From NCBI GenBank assembly GCA_000708835.1, contig DF237442.1, positions 2,177-66,176 of the forward strand: a stretch of 64,000 nt of DNA, written 5' to 3'. A program made the translations under genes and the position numbers. The stretch is from Klebsormidium nitens (Eukaryota; Plantae; Klebsormidiophyceae). Of this stretch, positions 1 to 27,999 are shown piece after piece. The first letter of the stretch is position 1. Each line of letters begins with the position of its first letter. The notes beneath the pieces are model-generated. The model was not told the DNA's origin, did no database searches, and saw nothing but the letters and a program-made list of their open reading frames with translations.

Positions 1-420
1 GTCCCACCAATAATGTGTTGTAAGCAATGGCGCGAAGGTGTCCGAGCGTCCGAGTTTGAGTCATGTACCTTTTTGGGTCGAGCATGCTTGATGACGTCAG
101 CAGCTATCCCACCAATGATGCTCTGTACTTAACGGCACGAAGGTGTCCGAGTGTCCGAATTCCTCACGTACCTTTTTGAGTCGCGGCATGCTTGATGACG
201 TCAGCAGCCATGCCACCAATGATGTGCTGTAATTACGGCACGAAGGTGTCTGAGCGTCCGAGTTTTTCACGTAACTTTTTTGGCCGAGCATGCTTGATGA
301 CGTCAGCAGCCATGCCACCAATAAAATGCACTGCAATGAACGGCCCGAATTTTGAAGGTGTCCGATCAAGTGTTCAAAGATTACAGTGACGCATATTACG
401 AGCTAGCATGCTTGATGGAC
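1..420. repeat. Tandem array of a ~104-bp two-box repeat (about 3.5 copies visible; the array runs off the window start)
   Basis: CCACCAAT recurs at 4, 109, 213 and 315. The full units carry GTGTC(C/T)GAG(C/T)GTCCGA and GCATGCTTGATGACGTCAGCAGC. Confidence 0.9.
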
Positions 421-978
421 TACTTGGCGAATCTTTGGCTACATCAAAGACAGTGTATCAATAAATCATTGATGCAAGGTTTCTAACTCGGTTGACGATG
501 AGCCGCGGTTCAAGTTCAATTTGCAACCGTAGGCCCAGACTACGGTTGTACAAAGTAGCGCGTATATACTACTCGACTTCGTGATCGAGAATTCGACATG
601 GTGGCATTAGCAGTTCCATCCAACGCAAAAGAATGGGGTTGTACATGAGGTTGTACATCGGGTTTACCACCGTGTGTGGGTGTGTGGTATTGTAGACTTA
701 CTCAGTAGTTTCAACATTACGTGCAAACCCAATTCCAAGGTGAGACTAGGGGGTCTAAAAATTTCACTTAGAATGGTACATCGGCAGAGTTCGTGAAATT
801 CGTCCGAACGCATGCATAATAAATACCAAAGTGAAGGGGTTACTAGAATGTACACCTAGGGCATCTAGCTATCTCTAAAAAGGAGGACAATATGTACATC
901 TTAGGCTCCTATGCTCTACCAATTGAAGCAAGTCTAAGAGAAAGGCAATGAATTGACTCTACAGACGAGCGCTAACTA

Positions 979-3900
979 TCAATCATACTCGCACTTGAAG
1001 CCTAAATAGCACGAGCTCCGGTGGGATGACCCGTCATAACGGCCGGCTCGCTTCGTTCTCGCGTAACCCTTCTCTCGCATCTGCCTAGCCAACTCCTCCT
1101 TGGCAATCTTGACCCCTGTGAATCTCTGGAACTGCGTCCAGAACTCGTCCTCCCATGTGACCGTCTTGGCATTGTCGGGCGTGTCTGGCGGGTCGTGCGC
1201 GCAGTGCTCCGACTGCAGGAAGATCTGCAGCTTGTCTCCGCGCCGCAGCCATGCCATCGAGGCCGCCTGGACGGCCGCCGGATGCCTGCGCAAGACCGTG
1301 GGGTCCTCGTACCAGGCCCGACTTCCCTGGACGAGAAACGTGAGGAACTCCTCGCGGACCGCCAGACTCTCCATCCGGTCCTTCAACCCGACGTCCACGT
1401 GCCTGTGGTTCGGGTTGGTCTCGTCAAACTTATTCTCGGACACGTACTCGTTTGGGAAGCGAACCACGATGAGGCGGCGGTTGATGTTTGGCTGCTTGGC
1501 CAGGGTTGGGGGGATCTCGGGGTCGTAGTTAGTCTGGATGAAAGGCGTGTGGGTGAACCGGAAGGAGACGTTGTTCTGGAAGAGGAGCCGGGAGGCGACC
1601 ATGCCCCCGCCGGTCATCTTGAGCACGTCCCCCAGGTCGACGCGCTCGCCCGGGCTCGTCTCGTCCGTCACGGCCACCCGTTTCCCCTGAAGCTCGGCGA
1701 GGTAGCCCGTGGCAGCGCCCTTGGACGGCGGGCGTTGTCCGGGGGCCTTGACCACGGCGTCCTTGGACATGACGCCGTAGTATTCGCCCAGCGTGGTCTC
1801 CAGCATCTGCTTGCAGACCCCCTTGCCATTCCCTGCACGAGAAATGGGTCGAAAAGCACGTAAGCGGGCGTCTGAAATGGAGTTAGAGGATTCGTGATGG
1901 ACAAAGATATCAAAGCAAAGTGGACGTGATCATTTATCCCAACGATAAACGGTCAGGGATGGCTGCTGACGTCATCCAGAGGCGACAAAGAGAAAGGCGA
2001 GCGGGGAACTGGGACACTCGGACGCCTTCGCGCCATTCACCACAGTGGATTATTGGTGCAAGTTTTGATGAAATCACCAGAGTCACAGGCGAAAGTGCAG
2101 GGAATGGCTGCTGACGTCACCAGAGGGTCGACCTGAAAACGTGCGTCAAGAACTCGGACACTTGGACACGTTCGCGCAATCAATCACAGGCGAAAGTGCA
2201 GGGAATGGCTGCTGACACAGTCATCAAAGAGGTTCAAATTTGTATGTCCTAGGCTGAGCCTAGGACATACATTCTGAAAGGATACACAGAATGTCTGTTA
2301 AAAAGTGGGACACTCGGACACCCTCGCGCCACCAATCACAGGTGGAAGCGCAGGGAATGGCTGCTGACGTCATCCAAGGGGGTCGATTCAAAAACGCTCA
2401 TCAAAACCTCGGACACTTGGACACCTTTGCGCCATCAATCCCAGTCGACGACCACGGCCGAAAGAAAGAAAGGAATACTTGGACGGACAAAATCAGAGCC
2501 AAAGGAGAGAAAGACGTACCGCCGCTTCCGAGTAAGAACACAATAATCTCCTCCGAGGTACGTCCGTTGATGGCATACCCCCAGAGCCTCTGCATGAAGT
2601 CAATCAACGCTCGGTCCCCGTTGAAGATGTCGTCCAGGAAACCCTCGACGGTGAGCGTCGGGTGACCTAGCCCCTGCAAAGAATGATTTAGACGGTTCAA
2701 TCGAATTCTCCTTGGCGTCTTTTAAGTCAAAGGACGTCTGCCTCTAACCGGGACTCTCTTTGAAAGACGCCATGCGGACAAGCGCAATTGCAATCAAGCA
2801 CAAAGACTCGTGAGAAAGGGACAGGATGCCGTGAAGCGTCAACGCCCTGCCTTCAGATTCAGCTGTTGCGCTTATGCGTGTACATACCAGGCAGAAAGAT
2901 GCTTAGCACTGGAGGAAAAGACGCCAACCTGAACTAAAAATCAAGAAAGAGAGCGCAAAGCCTCGATACAGCAAACTCTTGACTCTTTCTAGTAAGTTGG
3001 TCCCCAAGTAACTCGCACGGATGCTTGCCTGAATAGGGAGCGATTGCAAGGACCAAAGAGAGACTCAAACAAGTATTTCTCTTTCACAATTCTTTTGTGC
3101 ACCAGAATTTCGACGATATTCCATCCTGAAATTGCATGACGACAGAAAACAAGCCACAACGTGCAAACAAAACACCTTGTAGTTGATGTCAGCCAGCTTC
3201 GTGCACAGGTACTCCGGCCTGTGGATGTCCAGCTCGCCGGTGCGCAAGTTGACGACCCCATTCTGGACGTTGAGGATGTCTGGATTAGAGTCCAGCTCCC
3301 CCACCAGATCCAGGGCCATCTCCCCCATCATGATCGTCAGGGTCGAACTGATCTCGCCAGCGTCGTAGTATCGTCTGACTCTGTCAAGAGCTTTCTTTAG
3401 CTCCATCTTCTCCTGCTCGTCAGTGGTTACGCTCAAACGCTCTTTCAATTCGGCTCGAACTCGAGCATACACAGTGCTGAGCTGGTGGAGGCAGACAAAC
3501 TTGATCTTCTCGGCAGTAGCCTGCTTGAAACGCTTCCCATCCCACATCCACCAAGTCTTCCCGTCGTTCCAGATCCTGCAAAACCTCACGAAAAGGTGTC
3601 ACTCTGTGGGCTAACACCGTCAATGCCTTCAAAAGTCAGCGCTTAGGAGCCGTAGCGCTTGACATAACGAAACATGCATGGGCCGGCGGCTGCTAACTTC
3701 ATCCTGAGCTCCTGAACAGAAGACTTTTTCTGTGAAAACTCGGACACATGGACACGGTGCAGGCTTTCTACGACAACAAACTTAAGGTGGGATTGCAAGT
3801 GGCATCACCCCCGAGCTCCTGAAGAAAAAAGGTTGGCAGCAATCGAACACTTGGACACGGTATACAATGCAGGCTCTCAATTCCAGTGAACATCTGGCGG

Positions 3901-6900
3901 ATTAGATGCTGACGTCATCCCGAGCTCACGACCCAAAAAGGTTTGCTAAAGCTCGAACACTTACACGGAACACAGTGCATGCTCTCAATCACAATAAACG
4001 TCAAGTGAAAGAGATGCTGACGCCATCCCAAGCTCCTCATCCAGAAAGGCTAGCTGAAAAACGGACACGAAGACAAAGACGACAATAGGAGACATTGATC
4101 ACGACAAGAATTGAGCAAGATGCATGCAGACACTTTCTCCTTGAGATGAGCAGGAGAGCAACAGGATGGAAGACAATGGCTGCAGCTTCATTCAGGGGAG
4201 TTTTCCAAAGTCGCAACCGCTACCACAGAGAAAAAGGAGTAGATGATACCACCTGTGGCACCTCGAGTACATCTGTGCGACGATCCGACTGGCCCCCATG
4301 TCACCTTTGAACGCCCAGTAGTCCACGAACGGCTTCGTCAGCTCCTTGTACACGGTCGGGTCGTCCTCAGAAACTGGGGCTGTCTCGCCCCCCATCATGC
4401 TCTCTTTTACCGTGAGCTCACCGATCTTGCGCGGCGGGTGAATGTCACAACATTCCGGGCTGTTGCACTTGTAGAGGAGGTTGCGACCCCGCACGAGGAC
4501 GCAGAAGTTGTTGGAGCCGCTGTGATTGGCCCCATACGGACACACGCGTGCGCCATTCACGCGGAACACGTACATGTCGCCCGCAGAGGACCTCTTGAGC
4601 TTGTCAAAGCATGAGTCGGAGTCTCCAGCGTCCGCGAGGCACTTCTGAACGCGCTCCAGAACAGCTGGCGGAGGGGGCAGCTCGATTTCGTGGGCGTCGA
4701 GGCCTTCCGCGAAGCGATCGGGTGGCTGTGACGCTGGCCTGCAGATGAAATCGAATGAGGAGGTCCCTAAATGGAAGGGAAGAGCAAGCACCGCCAAGGA
4801 AGATCTGCTTAAATGCGGCCCAAAATGGGCCGAATACCGCCTGACTACGAGCTTGACTGCGAATTTTAAGCCAGACAACTCATCGTTCGGAAAGAAGCTG
4901 GATGCGCCCCCCCGGAATTGCCCGAGCACGGCCGAGAGAACAATCAATGCACGGATTTACAAAACAATCTCGTCGCGCTCTTTGCAAGAGCCCGATTGCA
5001 ATTCAACGAAAGTGCCTGAAACGCGGCCCAAAGCAGATCGACTACAGTGAAGGAACCAGCATCATTGTGTCCCAAGAGCAAACCTAACTTTGGGCTCGGA
5101 TGCTGGTCGAATTCAAGCTGAAATCTTGCGCGCCCCTCAATCTTGATGCATCAGAACCAGGCTAGCTGCGCCCCTAGCCTGACTGGGGCCAAGAATCGGC
5201 TTTCGCTGTGGGCAAGAAACCCAACTGTGCCTCTCCAAATCAGCCTGATTGTGTGACCCCAAACAGCCTGACTGTGCTTCGCCTTACAGCCTGACTGTGC
5301 GGCCCAAACAGCCTAGGTCTAGACAAGAGAGTTGCCTAATTGCATCCTCCAAATCGGCCTGATTGCCTGATTGCTTCCAGGACAGGCTGGGTGGCACGCA
5401 AAGACCGCGGGTAATGCAGAACGCGCAGAATCAGACTCCAAGCACACGACAAGCGTAAACCCCCATGCAAGCTTCTTGATCCAGACATGGAAAACCAAAA
5501 AGGGAATAGTACCTTGGTGGTGCTGCAGGTGCGCTGCTGTCATTGATGATCTTGATCAACCACGATGGCATAGCCCGAAGGTTGGAGCGGTCTGGAATAT
5601 CTCCTGCACCCACTCGTACCGCCGGACCGCGCCGTCCACGCCCTTGTAGCTGCTGGGGCCCACAAACAACATGCCCCCCTCGCCACGCGTGTCGAGGCCC
5701 ACTTTTTCGCCTTCGTAAACCAGACCTTGCCTTCCGGCGCCACTCAGCAACCCCGCGGCCTTGGACAGCGACAGGGAGAAGAAGAAATGTCTCCCAGGCC
5801 TGTGTCCCGACCACTCCCATGGGGTGTCATCAGGCAAGGGGCCGTGAGCTGCCAGCATCCGCTCGAAGGCCTCCGCCCCGCCGTCCTTCGCGTCGATGTC
5901 GAGGGCGTAGATGTCGGAGGGCTGGGTCACAATGGCAAGGCAGCTTTTGCCAGGCCGGACACCTCTGCGCAAGCAGTTGCCGAGATCGCACTCCTTCTGC
6001 CACCCGCGCATGAGGTCAGCAGGCTTCTTGGTCTCCTTGCCCTCCTTGTCCAACTCGACTTTCATGTTGAACGTCAGCGATGCCACGCCCATCGCGTGAA
6101 AGTGATGGGCGGCGGCCAAGATGGGGTCGACTCGCGACGGCCTCCCCACGTCAGATGGGCTCGGTACCTGTGGAGGACGGAAGCATCTGTGAGGTTGGCG
6201 CCTAGCTTTGGCAGTTGCACGAACTCTGGGGAAGGGGATCTCAAACCCTTGTTTCGCCCCTTGTGCACCATCATTGTTTTGGACTCAGGAACTTGGATTG
6301 GCCCCAAACTGGCCCTCGACCCAACCCCCTTTGAAGTAGATCTAATCTGGCCCCCAAACTTGCCCTTAAAATCTGGCCTCCAAACTGGCCCCCGAACCGG
6401 CCCCAAGCCGGCCCCCAAAAACTGGCCCCCAAACCTGCCCTTAAAAGGCCCCCAAACTTGCCCCCGAACTGGCCCTTAAAAACTGGCCCCCAAACTGGCC
6501 CCCCAAAACCTGGCCCCAAAGTGGCCTTCTAGATCACACATGTAAGTGCACCTGTTGCGCATCAAGTAGCAGCCCTAGGTGCGCTTGCGCTTCCCTTTTG
6601 CTTTACCAAACGGGCTGGACTCGTGCCAGTCATAACCATCATAAGAAAGATGCTCCATTCTTACTTCGCGACTCGGTACGTTTGTCAGGTGGTACGCCAG
6701 ACGCTCGAGATACACACTCATTCGGGCTTCCCATATGGCCTGGTCCCTGATGACGGGCACCCCGAGCTTGCGCCAACCGTAAGAATCCCTAGACTTGAGC
6801 GAGCACAATTTCAAGTTTCGCAGTAGACACTTCCAGGACGGGTACCAAGATAAAACTGCCCTATTCAAGGAGCCCACCTGGCAAGGAGCCGCCGTCTCCT

Positions 6901-9900
6901 GCACCGCGATGCCCTGGGGAACGGCGGAGGGAGCAATAGGTGCTTGGGCGGTCGAGGAGGGCAAAGGGGTGTGGGGCGCAGCCACGTCCGGCTCTGGCGC
7001 AGCAGACGTGGAAGAGCGGGCAGGGGCGGAACCGGAGTTGGGCGCGTCCCCCAAGTCCTGGGGTGCAGCAGGTGTGTGCTGCTCCTGCTGGGCCGCCCTG
7101 GTCGCGCTCTGGGCAACTACGGCGCTCCGGATGGGGTCCGACGGCAAAGTGCGCGGCTCAAGCGAGGTTAGCCCGGCCGCGTCAAGGGCGGTCGGGGCAC
7201 CGTCGGCAGCTACGGCCTGCGAAAAAGGTGATAAATTTGGAATCAAACCGTTAATCCTTCACCCTCGTAGCGCTGCACGAAAAGCTGCACCTTTCTTGAG
7301 CATTCCCTACGCGGGGTCAAGTGAAGCCTGATGAACGAGCAGAACACAAGGCGCCCCTTCTCAGTGAGTACTTTGTTGGAATGCAGGTGCCGCGTCTCGA
7401 ACTCTGAACGTGCTTTGAAAATCTGTGTTTTATTGGCAGGCATTCTCGATTGGGCGCGACGAGCACCAGCCGCTCATGCAAGGAGACAATGATTCTCTGA
7501 GCATGTACACCTCCTGCCCTCTTGCCAACCCAGAGGGTCACTGAACAAACCGCCCAAGGCTGTCCAAGTTTCTAATCGCTTCGGAAACTCAAACCCTAAG
7601 ATTTCGTGTACATCAGCAACCCAGGCGGCGATTGAATGGCGATGTACACAAAACCAGCTTTCAGGTCGGCAATTGTATGGCGGTTGATGTACACAAACAC
7701 CAGCTTTCACCTCGGCGATTGAATGGCGGTTGATGTACACCAATCTGTCACTACGTCCTGTAAACTTTCGCAACTTTGCCAGCAATTTGCGCGCTGGCTT
7801 TTCTGGGCACGCAACCATACCTTGATGCGATTTGCTGAGTGCCCAAAATCTGACAACCTAGAGTTCTGTCCAGATGCGAGTCAGGGGAAGGGGGGAGGGT
7901 GCTCACCTGGCGGCTGATCGAACGCGGACGCGGGGCGATCACACACGCTCTCGCAAAGTCATCCTCCAGGCTTAGGTCCAACAGGTCCAGCCAGCCGTCG
8001 TCCTCGGGCTCTGGTGGGAGGTCGTCGGACCAGCCGTCGTCCTCAGGTTCCGAAGGGAGGTCGTCTGGCATTGGGTAATCCGTCCCAAGCGCAGACCCTT
8101 CTTCCGGCATGGGGGGGTGCTTGGCGATCACGCCCTGGCTGCAAACCGGGGAGTGCGGACTGTCCTCCTCGCTCGAGGAGTCAGACTCGGGTGACAGCAG
8201 CACGCGGCGGCGACGGCTGGTTTTGCGCGGGTTGGTCGCCCCATCAGGCGCGCGCCGCTTGAGCCTTGCCAGCACCTGGGAAAAATCCTCTTCATCGGAA
8301 TCTGTCTCCATCGCGGCGAACCGGCCGCACCGCACCACCTCGTTCTCCTCTTCCTGAGGGGCGTCGTCGATCATTGCGCGATCTTGGGAGGTTTCCTCGT
8401 CCGAGGTCTCGTTCGCGCTCTCGAACTCCGCCCCCTCAATGTCCTCGCCCTCCCATTCCGACTCCGTCTTCTGCGACTCGTCTCCGCAGAAGAGGCGCGG
8501 CGCCTGCCGATCATCGCCGCCCTGCACAAGTGTGCGCGCCGCCAAAGATCAGATGAATCGATGAAGCAATTAAAGGCGAGCTGCTGGTTCCAAAATCAGA
8601 TGCTGTCAAAAGTCCTTGTCCAAGTGTCCGAGTTCTTGACATGCCTTCTGGGCTCGGGCCTGCTTCGTGACGTCATCAAAGATCAATGGCAATCTGATGG
8701 CAAATGCGAGTTGAGACACACTGCCAGCACCTGTCCAAGTGTCCAGGTATCTGGAGTGCTTTCTGGAGTGCTTTCTGGGCTCGGGCCTGCTTCGTGACCT
8801 CATCAAACATCATGGCAAAAACAGTTGAAGATTTCGATGGAGCAATCTGATGCGAGCTACTGGTTGGACCACAACATGCGCTGCATCGCAGAAACCCGTG
8901 TCCAAGTGTCCGAGTTTCTGTCGCACCTTCAAAGGGCAAAGCTTCATAATGACGTCAGCAAACATCCCGAGTAAATCCCTGTGTGGTTGATGGGGCAGAC
9001 TCTGTCCGAGTGTCCGAGCTCTAGTCACACCTTTCAAAAGCGAAACTCCAGGATGACGTCAGCAGACGTTCTAGAAGGAAACTTTGTAGTTGATGGGGCT
9101 AACACTGTCTGAGTGTCTGACTTCTTGCCATACCTTTCAAGAGCGAAGCTCCTGGATGACGTCAGCAGACGTCCCAGGAAGAAAACTTTGTAGTTGATGG
9201 GATTTGGGAGGACATTGTCTGAGTGTCCAAGTGTGTGACGTGCCTTTTGGGCTCGAGCCTGTATCGTGACATCATCAGAAACTATGGCGAGATGAGTTCT
9301 TAAGAGACAGCCACCAGATTACAGATATGATTCTTGCGGCTACTTAGGCAAGTTGGGGGAAGGGCTGTTCAATCGACTTCACACTTACCTCTGAGTCGTT
9401 GGTGGCCGCTTTCATCTGGCTAAGATGCCACCTGATTCCAGAAGTCTTATAGGGATGTGTATGCAAATGGATATGCTTGCTTGGTTCTCTTATTAAGCGA
9501 CCGCATGCAGTCGCACTTGAAACGCACCTGGCTGCATTGTGCGCTGGACGACTGTGGCCGACTGTCAACGTCCATGGATGCTCCAGGAGCGCCGGCGGGG
9601 GTCTCGATAGGGAAGCTGCTCGTCATCTTCTCTGAAGGGCTCGGGATACCGTCATCTGGGGCGCCTCCCTCCTGCACGTAAGCGGGAGGTGTTGATCAGA
9701 AGTTTGCCGGACAGGCAAAAGTCCAAGCGAAAAAGGCGCAAGAAAGGCCTCAATGCTGGCAGGTGGACCGGCAAGTGTTCATAAATGATCGTGCAACATC
9801 ACGACAACAGACTGCTTGAGCACGTGTTGCTGACGTCCTGCCTTCTGGGCTCGGGCCTGATTCCTGACGTCCGCATCTATCATGACAAGCCGAGCTGTTA

Positions 9901-10947
9901 ACAGAAGAGCACTAGTTGTCCCCAAATCACTGGCATGATTCTCGAGGTACGCCTGCCTAGTAGATGAATTCGACACAATCCAGAGTTATCTTCACACGAA
10001 CCTGTGAGTCGGTGGTGGCCGCTTCGAGCTGCTGTGAAGCTGCCACTTCCTCCCTCAGCCTGCGTTGAAAGTCGCGGAAGTGGCTGGGGTCGATGAGGCC
10101 ATGTAGTGCAGGCCCTTGCGGTTGGCGGGTCTCATGCTCCTGCAAACAAAGAAACGTGTGGTGGGATTGTTGGCAAAGAGAGGGGATTGTCAACCGCTTG
10201 AAAAACGGATTCTTCAAGCTGCCGTGTGCAATGATCGGGCACGGAATTCCGACCGCTGAAGCATCGGGAGGTATGTAAGAAGGAAGGCAACGGGTTGCTT
10301 TTTGTTTTTGAAGAGTGTTAACCAGATGTGCTTGACGAGCCACCTGTGTTCGATGGCAAAGGAAAGATCTCGAGCTAACCCCTGAGATACATCAAATCCT
10401 GAAAGGCGTCCTTACCAGAATTCTTGTCCGAAGTGCGCCTGCTCGCAGAAGAATCTTCAATGAACAATCTGACACCAAACTAATCTCGATTGTGGTTTAC
10501 CCCCCAATAAAGACATCTCAGACAGTGACCACGCCATCGAATACGGAGGATCCTTTCGAGGATGGCTGCTGACGTCATCTAGGAGCTCGGTCTGAAAAGG
10601 TGCGACAAAAACTCGGACACTCGGACAGAGTCCGCCCCATCAACTACAAGGCATCCTATCGGGGATGTATGCTGACGTCATCAAGGAGCTCCCCTCTTGA
10701 ATTGTGTGACAAAAACTCGGACACTCGGACAGAGTCCGCCCCATCAACTACAAGGCATCCTATCGGGGGTGTATGCTGACGGTCGTCAAGGAGCTCCCCT
10801 CTCGAAACGTGTGACAAAAACTCGGACACTCGGACAGAGTCCGCCCCATCAATATGGATACCTCACCTGCAGCCCTTTGGGCAACATGAAGGAACTTTGA
10901 GAGCTGTCCCCAGGAGCATGGCCACCAGGAGAATCCGTCTCCTCCAT
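979..10947 (-). CDS. Spliced D5/P4-type primase-helicase (acidic N-terminal extension + Prim-Pol + Zn finger + D5_N + SF3 helicase + C-terminal wHTH-like domain), about 1290 aa; one 1-nt frameshift, so possibly a recent pseudogene
   Basis: Phase-consistent GT-AG exons: 10947-10867, 10139-10002, 9671-9528, 8521-7907, 7216-6878, 6167-5513, 4738-4253, 3575-3176, 2673-2520, 1832-979. Prim-Pol motifs: IYALDID, GRHFFF, LDTRGEGGMLFVGPS, MPSWL. Zn motif: CPYGANHSGSNNF..YKCNSPEC. D5_N: WWMWDGKRF, LDSNPDILNVQNGVVNLRTGEL. Walker A GSG|GNGKG is rebuilt across the last intron. Walker B VAVTDE, motif C FIQTN, Arg finger NRRL. The five 5' exons are less certain than the five 3' exons. Confidence 0.88.
1950..2430. 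repeat. Two-box repeat copies in the last intron (opposite orientation to 1-420)
   Basis: Repeated GGGAATGGCTGCTGACGTCA...AACTCGGACACTTGGACAC units. Confidence 0.85.
3735..4075. repeat. Degenerate two-box repeat copies in intron 7
   Basis: AAACTCGGACACATGGACAC, GATGCTGACGTCATCC..CTCGAACAC, GATGCTGACGCCATCC..AAACGGACAC. Confidence 0.7.
5235..5320. repeat. Short ~21-bp tandem repeat in intron 6
   Basis: About 4 copies of CAGCCTGA(C/T)TGTG, the last truncated. Confidence 0.7.
6296..6527. repeat. ~12-bp minisatellite (GGCCCCCAAACT) in intron 5
   Basis: Many degenerate tandem GGCCCC(C)AAACT / GGCCCCCGAACC copies. Confidence 0.9.
7625..7745. repeat. ~45-bp tandem repeat in intron 4
   Basis: About 2.7 copies of CGGCGATTGAATGGCGGTTGATGTACACAAACACCAGCTTTCA. 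Confidence 0.8.
8610..9280. repeat. Two-box repeat copies in intron 3
   Basis: Repeated TGTCC(A/G)AGTGTCCGAG...GATGACGTCAGCA units. Confidence 0.85.
10560..10852. repeat. Three near-identical ~105-bp two-box repeat copies in intron 1
   Basis: TGCTGACGTCATC..AAAAACTCGGACACTCGGACAGAGTCCGCCCCATCAA three times; box A of the third copy is degenerate. Confidence 0.9.
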
Positions 10948-12094
10948 TGCCTGCACAGCGTGGGAAATAGAGAGGAAGTGGGTAGAGCAGATTACAAAAA
11001 TTACGCATCAGCATCACCATAAACAGCACACATTGTTCGACCATAGACAGTGAGTATTCGATATGTCCCCCCCTCCCCCCCTTGGACAAGAACCAGCACG
11101 CGATCCCACAATCGACCCCAGTGAACCGTGAACCCGTTCGACAGTGGTCACAAGATCGGCCCGACAGCGGGCCCTGATTCAGCGGAACCACCCCGCTTCC
11201 CCAAGCATCAGAGAAGTTAGCGCAGCGGCGACTGTGATACCCCCCAGCAGCTTGGCCCTTATCAAGCTTAACAGCTGATTTCAGCCAACCCAACGCTGGG
11301 GCCAAGTCAGCAAAGCTACGGGGTTTGAGATCACCCCACAGTATAAGCCCATCAGCAAGTCCAGACCTGCCTAACAGCAGATGGTCAGAATCAGCCAGCC
11401 AAAGCACCTGATGCGCGCTATATACCTGGCGCTATTGCAAGCGTCTTGACATACGAAGGCTCACTTGCAGCTCTTCGTCAACCCCAATGATAGAACCATA
11501 ATAAAGAAATGTGTTCACTGAAGGAAGAATCGCACAAAGAAGCTTCTTCAGTTTGCATTCCCTGTGACGGACGTACCTGACGGAAGCTTCTTTGTTGCGG
11601 CTGAGCAGCTCACCACGGCCTTCTGGCACAACAATCTCAACAATTCGAAACCGTCTCAGGGCAAAAGCCAGGCAGTCCTGAGCTCTGTCCAGCAGTGTAG
11701 GAAAGGTGGTAATATATATGCCTTGGGCCGCAGCAGGTTCGGGCCGGATATTCCAAGCTGCTGCTGACTGTATATTCGGCTGGATGTGCTGTATTTCTTG
11801 ACAGCTGGCACTTTCTCATACCTTCTAGAAGGCTCGGGGTATACCGGCCATACCATGTAAAATGCTAAAAATATTGTAGTATACGGCGCTGCCGACGTCA
11901 GAATCCTAGTGTGACTGAACACTGCAGGTTTGGATTTGGGACGGACACTTGGACGCAAGAGTGCACTCAGAGCGAAGTCGTTACCGTGCTGATGTGAATC
12001 AGAGCGGTAATGGTTAGCCCCCGGTTGGCTTCGACCTCCTTGTTGTCCTTGGAGAAGCCTTTCGACCGCTCGGTCTACCTGCCACCCCTTGGGC

Positions 12095-12147
12095 GGGCTG
12101 ACATGGCGCTCTCTGAGTGGCCCGGATTTTAGTCCGAAGTTCATTTG
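12095..12147 (+). repeat. 53-bp direct repeat, copy 1 (copy 2 at 15319-15371)
   Basis: GGGCTGACATGGCGCTCTCTGAGTGGCCCGGATTTTAGTCCGAAGTTCATTTG; 50/53 identical to copy 2. Confidence 0.9.
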
Positions 12148-12237
12148 CTGATGTTGGTTGTTGGGACTGGGTTGTGACATCATTGATCACTTCTAAAGCG
12201 CCCCAGTGGCAGTAGCTTGGTGCAGGAGCGCTATTAA

Positions 12238-12525
12238 ATGGGCAAAGACTTCGATGATTTGGTGAAAGAGTTGAAAGATTTGGGGTTCAAGCAGCGAAAG
12301 AAGAAACTAGGTAACGGCGACATCTGCTTTTATCACGTAGATTACCCAAACTTCGGTTTCTTAAGGGACTCTAACGTCAATAATTCATTCAGGGTCAAAA
12401 CTTACGTTGATAAAGCAATTGAATTCTTGGAGGAGGCCAAACGCAACGCAGCGAAGGAGGAAGCAGAGCAGAAAGAGGCTGAAGAAGGGCCGGGGAAAAA
12501 CAAGAAAGGGAAGAAGAAGAAGTAA
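12238..12525 (+). CDS. HicA-like (dsRBD-fold mRNA interferase-like) protein, 95 aa, intronless, with a basic C-terminal tail
   Basis: KDFDDLVKELKDLGFKQR..GNGDICFYHVDYP..RVKTYVDKAIEFL follows the HicA pattern (F-x-DL-x-K-x-L-xxx-GF, then FYHPDYP-like, then VKQV-x-KAIE-like). It lies directly upstream of a HicB-like gene. The usual GSH His is not evident. Confidence 0.6.
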   Translation: MGKDFDDLVKELKDLGFKQRKKKLGNGDICFYHVDYPNFGFLRDSNVNNSFRVKTYVDKAIEFLEEAKRNAAKEEAEQKEAEEGPGKNKKGKKKK

Positions 12526-12993
12526 TGGCTGGTGCGGCTCACCATGCAATCTGCTGTTTAAAGAGTGCATAAGTCCATGTTCCGGCCTAGCATTCTGAGT
12601 CCAGGGCCTTTGTGCTCGCGTTGGTCACACACTGCATCCTTGGTTCTTGAAGTAAGAGCTTGCGACAGTTTTTCCGCGACATTTTCATCAATTGAGTCTG
12701 GAGAAGGGCCTTCTTTTTGAATCGTTGATCGAGATTCGAGGAGCTGCTTTTGGGACTTCAGGAGGCTACTTGCGTTGGATGTTTCCTTATCGCTTTGCTG
12801 CATGAGCAAGGAGGTCAAGAATACCTCCTGTTGGGCATCACCACGTTGAATAATATCTGAGATGGTCTGGCAGTGGGACTGCGCTGTTAGGTTATGATCC
12901 ACAATTTCACCACACATGCTTTTGCAGGAATTGATGCTAAGATTCTCCTTTGTCCTCTTGCCAGCGGTGGGGCAGCAAGTGGTTCAGCGCGGC

Positions 12994-14222
12994 ATGGGGG
13001 CCAGGGGAAGATTCAAGGGGGAGGGAAAGGGGAAGGAGCCGCAGAAACGAAAACGGACTGAAGCAGGTGGTGCGAGCGGCAGCGCAGCGGAAGGCGGGAG
13101 TCTGGAGCAGGGCGCTGCAAAGCTGAAGGCGGGAGAGTGGACGCGCGTCAAGGAGGCGGACGACTATGATGTCAAGGACGTGTTCTCCAAGGTGCTGCAC
13201 GGGCTGGAGTACCCTGCGTACGTCTCGCGAGAGCTGCACGAGGAGACGGGAGTCCCCTTCTACTATGCGGAGGCGCCCGACATCAGGGACCTCTGCACCA
13301 TGAGGCCCAACGCGCGGGAGGTGAGTGGAATGAGCAGCTTCTCATCGGAATGTTCATGCTCGCCTCTTTGAGATATGGATGGCTGTTCAACTCATTCCTG
13401 CAGTTCAATTACGGGCGAGGGCCTTCGGCCCAATCAGTCAGAGTGTATTTGTGCCTTCCGTTGAAGGGACTGAAGTGCTGAGGCATGTTTGCCTTTCCTG
13501 GAGGCATGTCGCTTTCCTTCAAGCATGCTTTCTCTGGCACTGCTGCTCGCTTCCTGGCGTGTTTATCTGCGGATGGTGCACATTCCAGTGTGCATGCTGA
13601 AGTCAGCAATTGCTAACGATATTTTCCTGAGATCGCACTCGTTCATCTGCAAAAGTTGCAACAGAAGTCTGGTCGGAAAGGTTTGGTTTTGACATTCAAT
13701 GAATGCTTCGATGGCAGGCGCAGGATGTGCTGGCGCGCCACCTCCACGCGGAGCTGGCAGAACGCGCAATCATCAGGATGCTGCCACCGCTGCCGTCGCC
13801 AGACCTGCCGCCGAATTCGGTGAAGCCGACCTACACCTGGAAGATACGAATCGACGGGGAGAGGTAAGAAGGGCAGCGGGGCCACAGACTCAATCGATCG
13901 CATGGATCGCATGGATGTGTACGGCAAACCTTGCTCAGGTGCAGAGCCTTGAGACTTGCGAGCGCTGCTGCATTGGCAGGAAGCTGTTTCTTGTTTGAAA
14001 TGCACGCATTAACTCTCTCTGAAACTCTTGGGTTTGATCTCCAGTCCTAGCTCTGTCAGAACTGAATTGCGTGAGCCAGCCAAAGACGAAACGCAAAAAA
14101 GAGAAGGTTTGTCAGGCTGTATATGGTGACCAGGTTCTGATTGACTCGTTGAAATTTGCAGGCTCACCCGGTTACTCAACAGCATCGACATCGGCCATGT
14201 CGAAGCTACCGATTCGGATTAG
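12994..14222 (+). CDS. HicB-like antitoxin, 3 exons, 177 aa from ATG 12994 (may gain a 5' exon from the HicA-like ORF)
   Basis: Exons 12994-13320, 13718-13863, 14162-14222 are GT-AG and in phase. Product YPAYVSRELHEETGVPFYYAEAPDIRDLCTMRPNARE|AQDVLARHLHAELAE..PLPSP..KPTYTWKIRIDGE|RLTRLL matches HicB features: YP start, Y-x-A-x-x-PD(I/L)-xxxx-T, EA helix, PLPSP linker and an RHH-like strand-helix. Exon 3 is the least certain. Confidence 0.65.
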
Positions 14223-15318
14223 TGTGCTAGGCTCCTATATTGTTAAGGAAATAAGTCAAACGATGTTTGTGTGTATGCTTCGCCAAGCAGGGGATGCAAA
14301 AGCAGGGGCAGGCGTGCGAGCGCAGCTAGAGTTAGCCAAGACAATAAACAGGCGGGCGCTTGCTTCTGCAGACCAGGGGCGGTGTGACCTCCTTCATGAA
14401 AAGCTCGGACCTCGAATTCGTTTCTTCATGTAATTTGCGGGTGTTCTTTCTCGAGGTTTGTCTACCTCACTAGTGGCTTCATGAAACACGGGCATGAGAA
14501 AGCATGCGCAAAACAACTTGTTTCATAGAAGAATCCGTGCAAAGCAGAGCTCATCTTAGGTGCGCGTCACCGCCCATGCAATTAATGTACAACGCCTTCT
14601 TGGTGTGCCCTGCAAAATCCGGTTTAAGTTATGGAGTGCATGCTGTTCTAAATTCCGATCATGCATACTCTTGCACACTATAGGACACAATTCAAAGTCC
14701 TTGCATGGTTTAGCAGCTTGGGTGCATCTATGGTTATATAGGCAGCGTCGTCAGCGGGCGAAATGCGAGGCTAAGGAGAGTCGACGATTCCGAGTTACGA
14801 ATAGCGGGGAAAGCGGGCGCGTGGACCCCACCATGACACGGGATTATCGTCAACGGGCGCTCATAAACTATACAAATTCGATTTACCTACAAAGTGGGTA
14901 AAACTTTTTGTGCTCCAGCTGCATTTAGACACTCGATTGAAAAGCAATGCGTCACAAATTAACACGACAAACTCGCCGGATAGCTACGACGCCGCGCGCT
15001 TCACTGGGTCAACACCGTCGTGGGCCGCTGTAGAGTCCGTGAACTCCTTTTTGACACAACCAACTCGGACACCGTCCGTAAGTTAATCCGGACGCGCGGT
15101 CGTCGTAAAATTAAATTGATAAGTCGGAAATCGCCGACGGTGGGTACTTCCTCCACACTTAAGGAAAGAAAGGCTGCATATTGGCCTCTTGTAAGTTGTC
15201 CCTAAGTGAGTGCCCGGTTGATACCAGACAACACAATGTGGTATGTACCACTTCCGGGATGGGCCTTCGACCGCGGTTAGGCACCGGCCTGCTACCTCCA
15301 CTCTTGCGACTCCCGGGG

Positions 15319-15371
15319 GGGCTGACATGGCGCTCTCTGAGTGGCCCAAATTTTAATCCGAAGTTCATTTG
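15319..15371 (+). repeat. 53-bp direct repeat, copy 2
   Basis: GGGCTGACATGGCGCTCTCTGAGTGGCCCAAATTTTAATCCGAAGTTCATTTG. Confidence 0.9.
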
Positions 15372-15642
15372 GCTTGCTGTTTACCGTGCCAACGACTTGG
15401 GCATGCTGGGGGATCCCCCGCAATCATGGGGTCGCTTGACAGTTGCGCTTGACAGTGGGGGGGGTCTTCACGAAAGCTCATAGAGCCCCTTGTCTTGTCA
15501 ACTTCATATGCAGGGATGCGCAGCATGGGTTCGACATCAGAATCTTCTGATCAAACCTCTTTGTCTTCATTACTTTTAGGAGGTTTTCTCCAGAGGATGC
15601 TGTCCTGAGTTGCAGAATTGGAAACAGTACGTCGCTGGTACG

Positions 15643-18600
15643 ATGGAGGGGCCCGCCGAGGAAAGCGATTTTCGGGTGCCTGCAATTGCGGCAGCTTGCA
15701 GCGTGGTGGCCAGCATCTTCCTGCTCTGGCGGAGCTTCCAATTGACCAGAATCCGTCCCCATTCTGATACAGAAGCGGACATCAGCAGTCCGTTGCTACC
15801 CGACTCTGACAGGCAGTTCAGACAGCGATCAAGCTCCGCCACTGTACTTTGGCTGGCAGTTTCCATATCCCTAGCCCAGATTATAGGTCAACTGTACATA
15901 GTTTTTTCCTTTACGCATGCACAATCAAGCGCACAGCTAACCCAGTTTGTGACCCTAACCCTTGCCTGGGGTGCGGCGCTGCTGTTAAGCTTGTTGGAAC
16001 ACCGCAGAGGGTTAGCTTTCCCTGGTCCAATTCTCCCCTGGTGGTGGGCGCTAGCAGCTGGCATCAGCTTCGTCTCTGCATGGCAAGTGCCCCACGATCG
16101 CGCCACCTGGCGGCCGGAGCTTGCGACACACCTCCTCAGCGGCGCCCTCGCTCTTGTTCTAATAACCGCCCACGCTATCACCACCGCTTACAGCGCCTTT
16201 GCAAAGAGCAGCCCCCACACCCCCCTGGTGAACGCGTACGATCGAGCGGGACCGCTCTCGCGCCTCACGTTCTGGTACATTCTCCCCCTTCTCAAGCTCG
16301 GATACAAGCGCCCCCTCCAGCCGGTCGACGTTCCCCCCCTCCCGAAGACAGACGATCCTGAGCCCCCCACCTGCCGTTTCCAACTAGAGTGGGCGAAAGA
16401 ACGGGCGAAAAGCAAGCCGTCGCTCCTGCGAGCGTTGTTTCGCGTCTATGGCGGCCGCGTCGCCCTGCAAGCGATCCCCTGTTTCATAGCTGAGGTTGGC
16501 AGCCTTGCGTGCCCTCTCCTTCTCCAACGGGTTCTCACATACCTAACACAAGATACCGGGCAATCAGGGGCTGCCACCTGGCGCGCAGCAGAGTACGCGC
16601 TGGCCTTCTTCTTGTTCACGATGATGAGGTCAGCAGGGACGCACGCCATGTGGATGCAATTAATGCAGGTGTCCATACAGTGTAAATACACCCTGATTGC
16701 GGCGCTGTATGGGAAAGTGCTGCGAATGCCCCCCGCCGTAAAGGGGAAGCACGCGGGGGGAAAGGTGCAGAATCTGGTGGCGAGCGATGTGGATGCGATC
16801 ACGGGGAGCGTGCTGCCGTACGTGCAGTGGTGGACTGTCTCCATGGTGAGAGATTTTTGGATGATGGCAGCTCTTTTATCTGCTTTTGCAAGATTTGGCT
16901 GTGATTGCTTGAGGGTTAAGACGCCAGTTCTTCTGGTGGCGACACGATCACAGGCACCTCAATGTTTAATCGCTCTCTCCTGCGAAAGTATGGGCAAGGC
17001 CTTGGTTCCCGTTCGCACCTATAGCCTTGACCACACTGCAAGCTGTGCGGCGATGGGTTTCCCTGTGGCTGCCTTGGTTCCAGTGTCTGTACCAAAAGTC
17101 CTTTTGGAAGTCAACTACGAGAGAGTAGACGGGTTGGCAGACCAAAGGGAGACTCATGGCCAGCACAGCTTTTGCCCGATGAATTACCGGGGAATAAGCG
17201 TTCTTCTCAGGTAGTCTGCCACATTTGAGTCAGCCCCTTAGAAGTTCGGCACCGTCCAATTGGGGTGTAACACCCCTTTCGGATTCTCCGATTGCGGCTC
17301 AAAGGCCTTCACACCAATGTTCGGTTGCCCAGCTATAATCGGGGGTAATTATGGCAGACTGCCTCCCTGACTGAATTTTCAGCCAGTCAGAGGTTCAATT
17401 CACGCTTGCTCTGTCATTCTGACAACGTGGGGATCTGCCTGTTCTGCTTTGTGACACTCATGTCGTATGCAGCCGATACCAACTAGGAGTTCGCACTCTA
17501 ATTAGTAAGATGTGGGACACTGTTGAGAGTTTCTCACTCTCTTCTTGCACCGCTGCACTCAGGTCAACTCAAGCTTTTTGACTCTTTCTCAGGTAATGAA
17601 CACGATTCTCCCCGGGTTCTTCCTGTACCGCCTGGTTGGCCCCGCGTACTTGATCGGCATCAGCGTGATAGTTGCGCTGCTCCCCGCCAGTGTGTGGGTG
17701 GCCGGCATTGTAAAGCGCGTCACCAAGACCATGTACGAGGCGCGTGATGCACGCGTCAAGCTGCTCGGGGAAGTGGTTCGCGCCATCCTAGTTGTCAAGT
17801 GCCTCGCGTGAGTGCTTTTACTCCGCCCATAATTGCCTCGCTGTCTCCTTCAGAGCTCTAAGGCTGTGTCATCTTTGCTGATTGATTGGCCTGAGAGGCT
17901 TTTCGCATGTTTCTTCTATATGGAATTGTCCAATACTCTCAAGCTTTGACATGGTCTTAGCAGGTTTCAGGTGCAGTCTGCGTCCTCGCTTTGAAGGTTT
18001 GCTGGCGCCGTTAATTCTGGGCGAGCCTTGTGTCCAAACAGCGGGTGCGCTTTTTTGACATGGATCAGCAAAGCTTTTGATGTCTCACTGCCATTTGAAC
18101 CTCCTCCGAGGCAATGGGGCATAAGCAATGCACGACGCCTTCCGCAATTAGAGTCCCAGCCTTCAGAAAATCGAGTTCGAACTCTAAGCACTCAAATTTC
18201 GTGCTTCCTGTGGCGCAACCATTTCGAAGCGTGAAGTTACATATACGGGTAACAACTCTGCCCTTCATACAAGTCTCTACCAAGTCGAATTCCCAGATCA
18301 CATTTCAGAGATTTGGAAGCGCTTTCAAACCTCTACCGAGTGTCCTGAATCGACTCTCCTTTATTGACTCGCAAAAGTGTCCATAATCTGCCCGCTGACA
18401 CCACCTTCTTGGCCTTCGCCCAGGTGGGACGACCTCATGCTGACGTGGATCACAGAGAAGCGCGCGGCGGAGCTGGCGCAGCGGCTGCGCCTCGTGTGGT
18501 GGGAGCTGAGCGAGGTTCTGCTGTGGGACACTGTTCCGGCGGCCGTTCCGCTCGTCACTTTCGCGTGGTACTGCCTCGTCATGCGTCAGCAGCTGACGAT

Positions 18601-26683: not shown

Positions 26684-27087
26684 TATCTACCTAGTCCACG
26701 CCGCGCGGTTTCTTTGTCAGGTTGCACCTACCCAGAGTCTGAGCCCCGGGCCCCGGCCCGGTTCCCAAAAAGTCCGGCGAAGGTCGTGATCTGGATTCTG
26801 AAGCAGCGGAACGAGTCACCGACCGGATCCACTGCAGCCGTGGTCTGATTACGCAGAGATCGCGATCCGCTCCAACCCGGCGCAGCCACTGGTCGTACCG
26901 CGTGCCCGGGGTCCGGACTCCGCTGGAACGTGTGCGCTGTGAGGCTGGACCAACCGGGCCGGGTACTTTCCTAGACCACGTGAACTCAAATCTGTGTGCA
27001 CTTTCCGAGTGATCTCCTGCACTGTGCAGTGTGCACTCAACCAGAGGCTACAGTCAGGCTACAGTCACCAAGTTGCTATTAGTATTA

Positions 27088-27630
27088 GGGGAAGGTCATT
27101 TTGAAGTGGTACCCCCCCTAATTTTTTGTGAGGGGGGGGGGCCTAGGGCTCTGAGCGCGGCTCGAGGTCCCTATGGGGGGGGGACACACCCACACTTTGC
27201 TCACGGGAGTGCTTGATGGGGGGGCACCTAACGAGCTTGGCCTTTTAGGTAGCTCAAGGGGGGGGAACATGGATCCCGGTCCCCATTTTCATGTGATTCT
27301 GAGGCTAAATCAAGCTCCAAATGGCGTATATGAACTAATATTCGTCAAAAACTTCTTGCAAAATGCCCCATACGAAAATCTTGAACGCAGATTAGCAAAG
27401 AAAAAGGTTTCATATGCCCGCATAAGCGACTTCTCTATCCAATTTTGGCTTCTCCCAAATACAGATATGGGGGGGGTACCCAGGGCCTTGATCCGGAAAA
27501 ATTTATATGGGAGGGGGGCCCGACGCTACGATTCCACTTGGGCCGTGGGTATGGGGGGGGGACCCAGCGCTCCCGGCAAAAACCCTCTACAAATAATTAG
27601 GGGGGGTACCACTTCAAAGTGACCTTCCCC
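27088..27630. mobile_element. PIF/Harbinger-type (Tourist-like) MITE, 543 bp
   Basis: ~35-bp TIRs GGGGAAGGTCA(T/C)TTTGAAGTGGTACCCCCCCTAATT; TTA target duplication at 27085-27087 and 27631-27633. Confidence 0.88.
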
Positions 27631-27999
27631 TTAGGAATCTCGAATCCATGTGCCTTTCACCTGTGTCAGTGTGCCTACATGAGTCGATGTCAGGTCAAAA
27701 TCTTCGGGCATGGAGACATCCTCCCTGTCCATTGGTGCGCAGTCCAGGAAAGCAGGGTGCAGATTGGGCAGGCAGCAGAGTTGACGCGATTGACTGAGCA
27801 CGTTCAGCTCTCCCACCTCACCCTCTTGAACACGGTCGTTTGGATTCGTTTCCCTTGATATTTGTTGGTCCTTAGGTGGCGCGCAGGGCTCCTGTCAATG
27901 CATCGCAGGAGCTTCCCAGCCTCTTCTTGCTGCAGCTCACAAAGGTTTGTCTGCAGCTCAGCAGCTGGTTTGCGCTTTTGCTCCTGACTGCTTTCGAAG

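Follow-up and report, generated by a model that had tools for sequence, protein, structure and literature searches.

Helitrons and other intron-bearing helicase DNA transposons are present as dispersed copies that keep their introns, many of them broken, with internal tandem repeats, and eukaryotic PrimPol has a UL52-like zinc finger placed after its AEP-superfamily primase-polymerase. Helitron-type elements are compared in an excerpt of PMC11296320 (section 9). Many polinton-like viruses have as their replicase an AEP-S3H fusion, a chain that joins a primase-polymerase and a D5-like superfamily 3 (SF3) helicase, as described in excerpts of PMC11161782 and PMC12220804 (see also PMC11296320). 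The replicases of the pRN1 ORF904 and phage P4 alpha type combine PF09250, PF08706, an SF3 helicase and a predicted winged helix (excerpt of PMC2777425; TIGR01613). Several giant-virus inserts were reported in Klebsormidium flaccidum (nitens), and the D5 column of the survey table is blank for K. flaccidum (PMC5294986). Endogenous viral genes are mostly silent and poor in introns, according to an excerpt of PMC11244446, and in algae and protists this is the usual state. In K. nitens, an alga closely related to land plants, we describe a viral-type replicase with about ten introns that appear to have been gained once and kept through deep diversification; many copies are transcribed, and the surroundings are host genes.

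The analyzed window is a 64,000-nt stretch of K. nitens contig DF237442.1. The gene occupies 976..10950 on the minus strand, where all its exons lie, and comprises 10 RNA-supported exons and 9 GT-AG introns, with the ATG at 10947 and the stop at 979-981. It reads as 1288 codons with an X placed at a break in the frame, while the unaltered frame from the ATG gives 642 aa. The sequence-only reading had assigned a primase-helicase to 979..6167; this span is too short, as five more introns with their exons lie upstream, up to the ATG. The exon with the start codon (10867..10950), whose joint is present in RNA-type contigs, is directly preceded by a splice-acceptor-like CAG, and two RNA-type contig records reach 55-59 letters further upstream; one additional 5' exon beyond 10950 is likely. 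Then follow two exons of the N-terminal tail (10002..10139, homologous to paralogs P0002, P0005 and P0006, and 9528..9671), an acidic low-complexity module with basic patches (7907..8521) and a Pro/Ala-rich linker (6878..7216). The basic patches, KRR and RRRR, possibly act as a nuclear signal. The catalytic part consists of the Prim-Pol exon with DxD, His and DxR motifs, which contains the frameshift (5513..6167), a C-H-C-C zinc-finger domain (4253..4738), a D5_N domain (3176..3575), an exon ending within Walker A (2520..2673), and the last exon (976..1832) with the remaining Walker A, Walker B (TDET), motif C, the arginine finger and a predicted winged-helix end.

The four introns proposed from the sequence alone, 5512-4739 (774 nt), 4252-3576 (677 nt), 3175-2674 (502 nt) and 2519-1833 (687 nt), are real: each starts with GT and ends with TGCAG, RNA-type contigs skip each of them, and the joined exons downstream of the break stay open between 5595 and the stop codon (981-979). 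The interruption of Walker A was also confirmed, the last intron cutting it between GSGG and NGKG in phase 1. The junction check suggested at that stage gave support throughout, with all nine introns skipped in RNA-type contigs and none of these joints found in the DNA run; the RNA nature of the runs is a guess, and they behave as RNA by skipping introns. Spliced contigs of the gene are present in runs from five studies, in agreement with the claimed nuclear spliced expression, and run X19 had no row across a junction. An origin of the introns as copies of one 'introner' was ruled out, since the introns have only satellite units in common, not their ends.

The predicted protein combines an acidic tail, Prim-Pol, a UL52-like zinc finger, D5_N and an SF3 helicase. 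The reading of this gene shows each of the 11 motif patterns tested, as the earlier claim of intact catalytic motifs implied. The Prim-Pol domain (PF09250, E 3.9e-16) has its motifs at 528, 564 and 598, and the helicase half includes D5_N (PF08706, E 3.3e-17), SF3 motifs A, B and C, and the arginine finger. Walker A ends with K-G, not K-S/T, and does likewise in the intronless relatives P0033 and P0034. The winged helix is predicted from the model of P0033, whose C-terminus folds as helix-strand-helix-helix-strand-strand with pLDDT ∼80; the full-length P0033 model is poor (pLDDT 59). The predicted fold of the zinc finger resembles herpes UL52 and giant-virus primases, the latter being its best model matches in BFVD, and VIA-align on this exon returned no match above Z 5.0.

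The family resembles the described polinton-like virus replicases in joining a primase-polymerase and a D5-like SF3 helicase in one chain, and its sister proteins share with them the form of intronless 800-aa ORFs. In contrast to polinton-like viruses as they appear in the cited excerpts, the Klebsormidium gene is split by 9-10 spliceosomal introns, encodes an acidic tail of 440 aa, lies among host neighbours and is transcribed in culture; no capsid, ATPase or integrase gene was seen in the window, and none of the near matches is a named polinton-like virus protein. With the pRN1 ORF904 and P4 alpha-type replicases, as covered in the excerpt cited, it shares both Pfam domains, the SF3 helicase and the predicted winged helix, and paralog P0002 scores above the TIGR01613 cut-off (137 vs 108.7 bits). 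It differs from them in the UL52-like zinc finger between the domains and in its separate clade in the helicase tree; phage and plasmid matches to P0033 reach an identity of just 26-31%, each over less than 80% of its length. Among solved structures, the giant-virus D5-like protein C962R of African swine fever virus is the best match to the helicase half (E 5e-45; Foldseek agrees), and the zinc finger is similar to those of giant-virus primases. However, the PDB sequence match to C962R lacks the Prim-Pol part, and, unlike giant-virus D5, the Klebsormidium gene lies outside any viral gene cluster. The family is like Helitrons in its dispersed intron-keeping copies, many of them broken, and its internal tandem repeats, whereas its enzyme is a primase-SF3 helicase, and no HUH nuclease, Pif1 helicase or element ends were found in the window. 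Eukaryotic PrimPol differs in its AEP family (PF09250 here), as well as in the fused helicase, multiple copies and patchy range of the Klebsormidium protein.

Intron-type members form one clade (9 rows, SH-aLRT 99), and their sister rows are P0033 and P0034 (support 92, below the starred level). Together they lie inside an 81-row clade with none of the 76 IMG/VR phage-type loci; seven phage-type rows fall on the opposite side of the helicase tree (support 99). The phylogeny called for by the sequence-only reading places the gene apart from P4-type primases and not with the listed giant-virus D5 proteins. A recent transfer of a bacterial or phage P4-type primase was ruled out, the family not being nested among phage or plasmid primases. 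The placement points to an unnamed clade of eukaryotic-virus-type AEP-S3H proteins, and the intronless form, tree and fold matches of the sister proteins suggest that these are viral. Intron positions are common to family members down to ∼40-50% identity. Long residence, as first claimed, is supported by the spliced junctions, by introns that sit at the same positions in relatives of about 40-65% identity and by the host-type neighbours; the gene is neither a contaminant nor a recent insert. The family was nowhere described in the literature searched, and paywalled papers and supplements (Dataset S1 of PMC5294986, viral-gene tables of PMC12344493) may list it.

The implied intact, working single gene did not hold up: this copy is frameshifted near 5596, it is one of at least nine, and most annotated models look incomplete. 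At 5595..5597 (minus strand), DNA and spliced RNA contigs lack one base relative to the paralogs, whose contigs have the extra base. The Prim-Pol frame runs into a premature TGA at 5558-5556, 43 nt ahead of the next junction, and the remaining domains are in another frame; in P0002 the Prim-Pol and helicase halves share one frame. The protein ends at 642 aa, ahead of the zinc finger and helicase, and this copy would give at most the tail and a nearly complete Prim-Pol domain. An assembly error was ruled out by gapless matches to the window across the site in two DNA-type and two RNA-type runs, the two DNA runs being one sample that may be the source of the window, and all runs possibly one strain. 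The copy in the window is a transcribed broken family member, not the working one.

Eight further K. nitens models, with eight different scaffold numbers, are 41-84% identical to this copy in the aligned parts, and at one place of the Prim-Pol exon five other contigs of run X13 reveal at least five other transcribed paralogs. The family comprises at least nine dispersed copies with 41% to over 90% identity. Only one of the eight models has all 11 motif patterns, seven being without at least one, as expected for birth and death of copies, although incomplete models may reflect annotation or assembly faults; P0002 is complete, and the intact paralog is KFL_007640060. A paralog at least 90% similar spans introns and exons at 1000-4700, so that both recent and old duplications are represented. 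Among 69 differences in a partial list, 31 are silent, whereas silent sites make up 23% (p 5e-5; pN/pS roughly 0.37), an excess that points to coding constraint.

Four introns of the gene, and its 3' flank, are filled by a 103-nt satellite. Its arrays or units are found in the 3' flank, running off the window start (4..420, plus strand), in the Walker A intron (1956..2444, minus), as diverged units in intron 4252-3576 (3687..4068, minus), in opposite orientation in intron 9527-8522 (8617..9279, plus) and in intron 10866-10140 (10554..10853, minus). All 25 hits are within 18-10853, with none in the other 53 kb of the window, and the other introns of the gene contain unrelated minisatellites. 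DNA depth reaches 225 and 345 in satellite bins vs 12-19 elsewhere, figures that are neither copy numbers nor expression ranks and only hint that the satellite recurs in the genome. The satellite pattern had no matches in viral contigs, Rfam found nothing in 1-16000, and three units folded as DNA had no common hairpin.

We favor, with about even confidence, the reading that the locus is a transcribed, spliced, frameshifted copy of a multi-copy Klebsormidium family. The family likely goes back to a single primase-helicase replicase taken from a eukaryotic DNA virus, and has since likely spread by serving a low-copy mobile DNA element as its replicase. One ancient capture of an AEP-S3H replicase would have been followed by copying at the DNA level, with copies being born, drifting and breaking; since copies retain introns, they spread as DNA, not via mRNA. 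By analogy with pRN1 ORF904, intact members would act as a ring helicase unwinding DNA, while Prim-Pol, aided by the zinc finger, would prime and copy it, and the acquired acidic tail with its basic patches would fit nuclear work. The confinement of the satellite to the locus supports the element. Several features would suit an ordinary host family equally well, namely the conservation of the introns, transcription that is steady across several studies and the constraint on the coding sequence; the lack of a mobility or capsid gene in the ORFs searched and of bracketing inverted repeats also speaks against the element. Pfam detected no transposase, tyrosine recombinase, HUH nuclease, capsid, packaging ATPase, integrase or other viral gene in 300 of the 312 ORFs of at least 80 aa; the helicase exon likewise escaped this search, and the window includes just 975 nt beyond the gene on its 3' side. 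No terminal inverted repeats besides satellite pairs bracket the locus, one end of which may fall outside the window.

A close rival, to which we give somewhat less than an even chance, is domestication: the alga would have turned the captured replicase into a nuclear enzyme of repair or repriming, similar to PrimPol but equipped with a helicase, and the gene would have multiplied by ordinary segmental duplication, this copy being a recent pseudogene and the satellite unrelated intron filler. The 9-10 introns and acquired tail fit this account, as do the spliced contigs from five studies, the silent excess, intron positions retained across deep subfamilies and in other assemblies, host-type neighbours with no mobility gene found in the window, and the unrelated minisatellites. 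However, genes of replication and repair enzymes are mostly single-copy, and at least nine dispersed copies of such varied identity, mostly annotated as incomplete, would be unusual for one. The family would either drive a class of mobile DNA that has not been described before or be an extra primase-helicase family of the alga itself.

A more specific form of the mobile-element reading is speculative and in our judgment unlikely: a new type of capsid-less mobile DNA of eukaryotes, a replicon that would be copied by its own primase-helicase, the product of a fully spliced gene. The winged helix of this enzyme would bind, as origin iterons, tandem TGTCCGAG octamers of the 103-nt satellite in the replicon's introns, and the replicon would have persisted in Klebsormidium until its subfamilies reached 40% identity.

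It is improbable that the family is merely what is left of an endogenous giant virus or polinton-like virus in decay, with all copies drifting and transcription and splicing incidental. The known giant-virus inserts in this alga, the frameshift and the motif patterns missing from seven of the eight models suit a relic, but the many introns with positions kept to about 40-50% identity do not, endogenous viral genes being mostly intron-poor and silent in the excerpt cited above; nor do the silent excess, the complete P0002 and the window without another viral gene seen. The neighbours in the window (ABC transporter, MYB, KAP, glycosyltransferase, DEAD-box helicase and RecA genes) are host genes in many exons, not the intron-poor viral cluster of a giant endogenous viral element, and nine spliced introns over 10 kb do not agree with the compact intron-poor genes of an endogenous polinton-like virus. 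A neighbour gene as element cargo was rejected, its sole match among 59-191-aa proteins being its own record, and a 95-aa ORF had no atlas match.

Least probable is a functional break, in which the frameshift is a recoding site or divides the gene into primase and helicase products: it sits where the Prim-Pol domain is just ending, an ATG of the downstream frame lies 13 nt ahead of the premature stop, and spliced contigs of the transcript can still be recovered, but P0001-P0006 run through the site in a single frame, inspection by eye found no slippery heptamer there, and the conserved xPxW end of Prim-Pol falls downstream of the break.

By locus-tag numbers, five of the six paralogs on multi-gene scaffolds lie within ∼2 genes of a scaffold end, a weak pattern given that three of the scaffolds are short. 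Among viral, metagenome and genome contigs no locus of a relative was confirmed. Exon-sized relatives occur in other assemblies, and the single scan that gave loci returned 77 distant matches at 24-35% identity.

The primase-helicase (replicase) gene occupies 976..10950 on the minus strand and contains ten RNA-supported exons. The sequence-only reading had named four introns within it; their positions are correct, each starting with GT and ending with TGCAG, and the last one does interrupt Walker A. Exons joined across them read as one uninterrupted frame between 5595 and the stop codon (981-979), with Pfam families PF09250 (Prim-Pol) in the first exon of this set and PF08706 (D5_N) in the third. 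Nine introns are skipped by RNA-type contigs from three runs of three studies, classed as RNA by guess, and none in a DNA run. Introns 10866-10140, 10001-9672, 9527-8522, 7906-7217, 6877-6168 and 5512-4739 (all on the minus strand) are skipped in all three runs, 4252-3576(-) (in a row shifted by a few bases, with its 677 nt unchanged) and 3175-2674(-) in two, and 2519-1833(-) in one; a close paralog may be part of the source of the three 3' joints. The 5512-4739 joint also occurs in two of three additional RNA-type runs. Intron 4252-3576 is contained entire in one 722-nt contig (3552-4273), with zero differences, in the DNA run and all three RNA-type runs; some transcripts thus retain the intron, and 3552-4273 perhaps has an identical twin elsewhere. 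The gene model starts at ATG 10947, and record lengths suggest an extra untranslated exon upstream, possibly ending at donor 11576. With an X at the break near 5596, the model has 1288 codons and comprises a ~440-aa acidic and Pro/Ala-rich tail, Prim-Pol, zinc finger, D5_N and superfamily 3 (SF3) helicase.

The gene is real and transcribed, and exceeds the earlier account in both age and size, but the window's copy is broken: it had been read as intact, and a one-base frameshift near 5596 was missed. The Prim-Pol frame stops at TGA 5558-5556, and the frame running into the downstream exons is offset by one base. DNA contigs cross the break without difference (run X1 record 2, 4662-5628; run X3 record 25, 4897-5628), as do spliced RNA-type contigs from two other studies (X13 record 2, X14 record 10); both DNA runs represent one sample, and the crossing contigs reach 31 bases beyond the break, just the alignment bridging limit. 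The extra base at the break is present in paralog contigs. The frameshift is real. As predicted from sequence, the product would be 642 aa long and would lack both the zinc finger and the helicase, as well as the conserved xPxW end of Prim-Pol. Downstream of the premature stop are four exon junctions, the nearest 43 nt away.

The nearest named proteins are exclusively K. nitens models. Eight further models (P0001-P0006, P0032, P0041) form two subfamilies about 41-45% apart. The full set of 11 motif patterns occurs in P0002 alone. P0004 is close to complete, having an arginine finger that the search pattern failed to catch, and the others lack at least one domain, which may reflect decay or faulty models. 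P0001 carries two unlike acidic N-terminal modules in tandem, one resembling that of P0004 and the other that of the window copy, suggesting subfamily recombination or a fused model. In run X13, five other contigs overlap a single place of the Prim-Pol exon, thus several paralogs are transcribed. Coding constraint is suggested by an excess of silent changes, 31 of 69 coding differences being silent where silent sites make up 23% (p 5e-5; pN/pS roughly 0.37); the 69 are 32 of the 40 best-supported rows of 277 and 37 of the 40 best-supported rows of 241, hence no random sample; 8 non-coding rows and 3 rows at the break were left out. These proteins are already in the public record, named hypothetical or P4-like primase, and the interest rests with the family rather than with the window copy.

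Among 1.84 billion representatives, a profile search recovered many ORFs of exon size, from JGI and Logan assemblies, and 37 short proteins were aligned to the gene model. Fourteen proteins represent the exon at intron 4252-3576, and in 12 of them homology breaks off precisely there (5 of 6 clusters; identity 49-66%). Homology also ends exactly at 3175-2674 in P0123 (44%), and at 5512-4739 in P0051 and P0188 (74%); seven more proteins end 4-10 aa before 5512-4739, and five ORFs start 1-22 aa past the Walker A intron (37-68%). Because homology in these protein sequences stops at intron positions, the exon-sized relatives would carry introns as well. Endogenised viral genes are described as having few introns for the most part, or as silent or methylated (PMC11244446, PMC12344493).

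The best non-Klebsormidium matches are uninterrupted ORFs of 800-1000 aa (P0033, E 7e-190; P0034, P0038, P0039, P0043, P0064) on contigs of 4-35 kb, with Prim-Pol, zinc finger and helicase in the same order and the acidic tail absent from most. A FastTree phylogeny of 235 helicase domains grouped them and the window copy in a clade of 81 rows (support 1.0) that includes none of the 76 IMG/VR rows. In an IQ-TREE analysis of 88 rows, with intron-type labels chosen beforehand and rows of <230 aligned columns (e.g. P0046) excluded, nine intron-type rows form one clade (SH-aLRT 99), sister to the intronless P0033 and P0034 (92). Named phage and plasmid primases show only 26-31% identity to P0033. 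Phage clusters of similar architecture were returned from an atlas limited to large clusters. Among solved structures, the helicase half has its best relative in swine fever virus C962R. The zinc-finger exon has a good predicted fold (pLDDT 82), whose top BFVD matches are giant-virus primases (best E 3e-4); in the PDB the herpes helicase-primase shares first place, at only Z 5.0, rmsd 3.5 over 87 residues. Taken together, ORF architecture, trees, low phage identity, C962R and the zinc-finger fold point to a eukaryotic DNA virus or polinton-like donor, the clade having no named member as anchor. Clade member P0071 carries Rpb1 and Rpb2 RNA polymerase fragments at the N-terminus of the same ORF, a hint that part of the clade resides in large DNA viruses. 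The contigs bearing the intronless relatives P0045, P0047 and P0048 measure 0.26, 0.38 and 2.0 Mb, so these relatives probably sit within cellular or giant-virus genomes. Fusions of primase-polymerase to SF3 helicase are known as replicases of polinton-like viruses (PMC11161782, PMC12220804, PMC11296320). Giant-virus inserts are present in K. flaccidum, but a published survey leaves its D5 column empty for this alga (PMC5294986). In the main texts of the literature searched, we found no account of the replicase family.

The locus carries a 103-nt satellite, whose unit contains a TGACGTCA palindrome as well as TGTCCGAG octamers in tandem. Its arrays hold three to seven units and lie in the 3' flank and within four introns, some in one orientation and some in the other (4-420, 1956-2444, 3687-4068, 8617-9279, 10554-10853; first 10.9 kb of the window only). 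A profile of 11 copies gave 25 matches in 18-10853 and none in the rest of the window, and of the TGTCCGAG octamers 17 lie in the first 11 kb and 4 in the remaining 53 kb. P4 alpha binds octamer iterons. A winged helix at the end of related replicases has been proposed to recognize origins (PMC2777425).

By analogy with ORF904 (PMC2777425), intact family members are likely all-in-one replicases, in which Prim-Pol would prime and then extend and the SF3 ring would unwind DNA. The copies spread as DNA, since they keep introns. Many dispersed copies of widely differing age, frequent breakage and the locus-bound satellite speak for a low-copy mobile element, a reading we give an even chance. Domestication of the family comes close behind as a tentative alternative: transcription is steady, coding sequence is constrained, and neither integrase nor element ends were found in the window. 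A drifting relic is improbable, fitting poorly with conserved introns.

The other window genes encode an ABC transporter, a MYB factor, a kinesin-associated protein, a glycosyltransferase, a DEAD-box helicase and RecA. Pfam recognised no viral or transposon family in 300 of the 312 window ORFs of at least 80 aa, a search that is insensitive because the helicase exon likewise gave no match. Next to the replicase gene lies a spliced orphan gene (12994-14210, +), with K. nitens KFL_004930020 as its sole match among proteins of 59-191 aa, at full identity across the 109 aa searched. An intronless lysine-rich 95-aa ORF (12238-12525, +), head to head with the replicase gene, has no match in Pfam or the atlas; one RNA-type contig (run X4) jumps back 97 nt within it. 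A 57-nt direct repeat (12091-12147 and 15315-15371, 93% identity) flanks a pair of orphan genes that lie upstream of the replicase and could represent duplicated element ends. Three unrelated minisatellites (23-, 12- and 46-nt units) fill three other introns (5235-5314, 6347-6526, 7641-7740), and a 545-nt segment at 27087-27631 resembles a MITE, with terminal inverted repeats of 43 nt (95% complementary).
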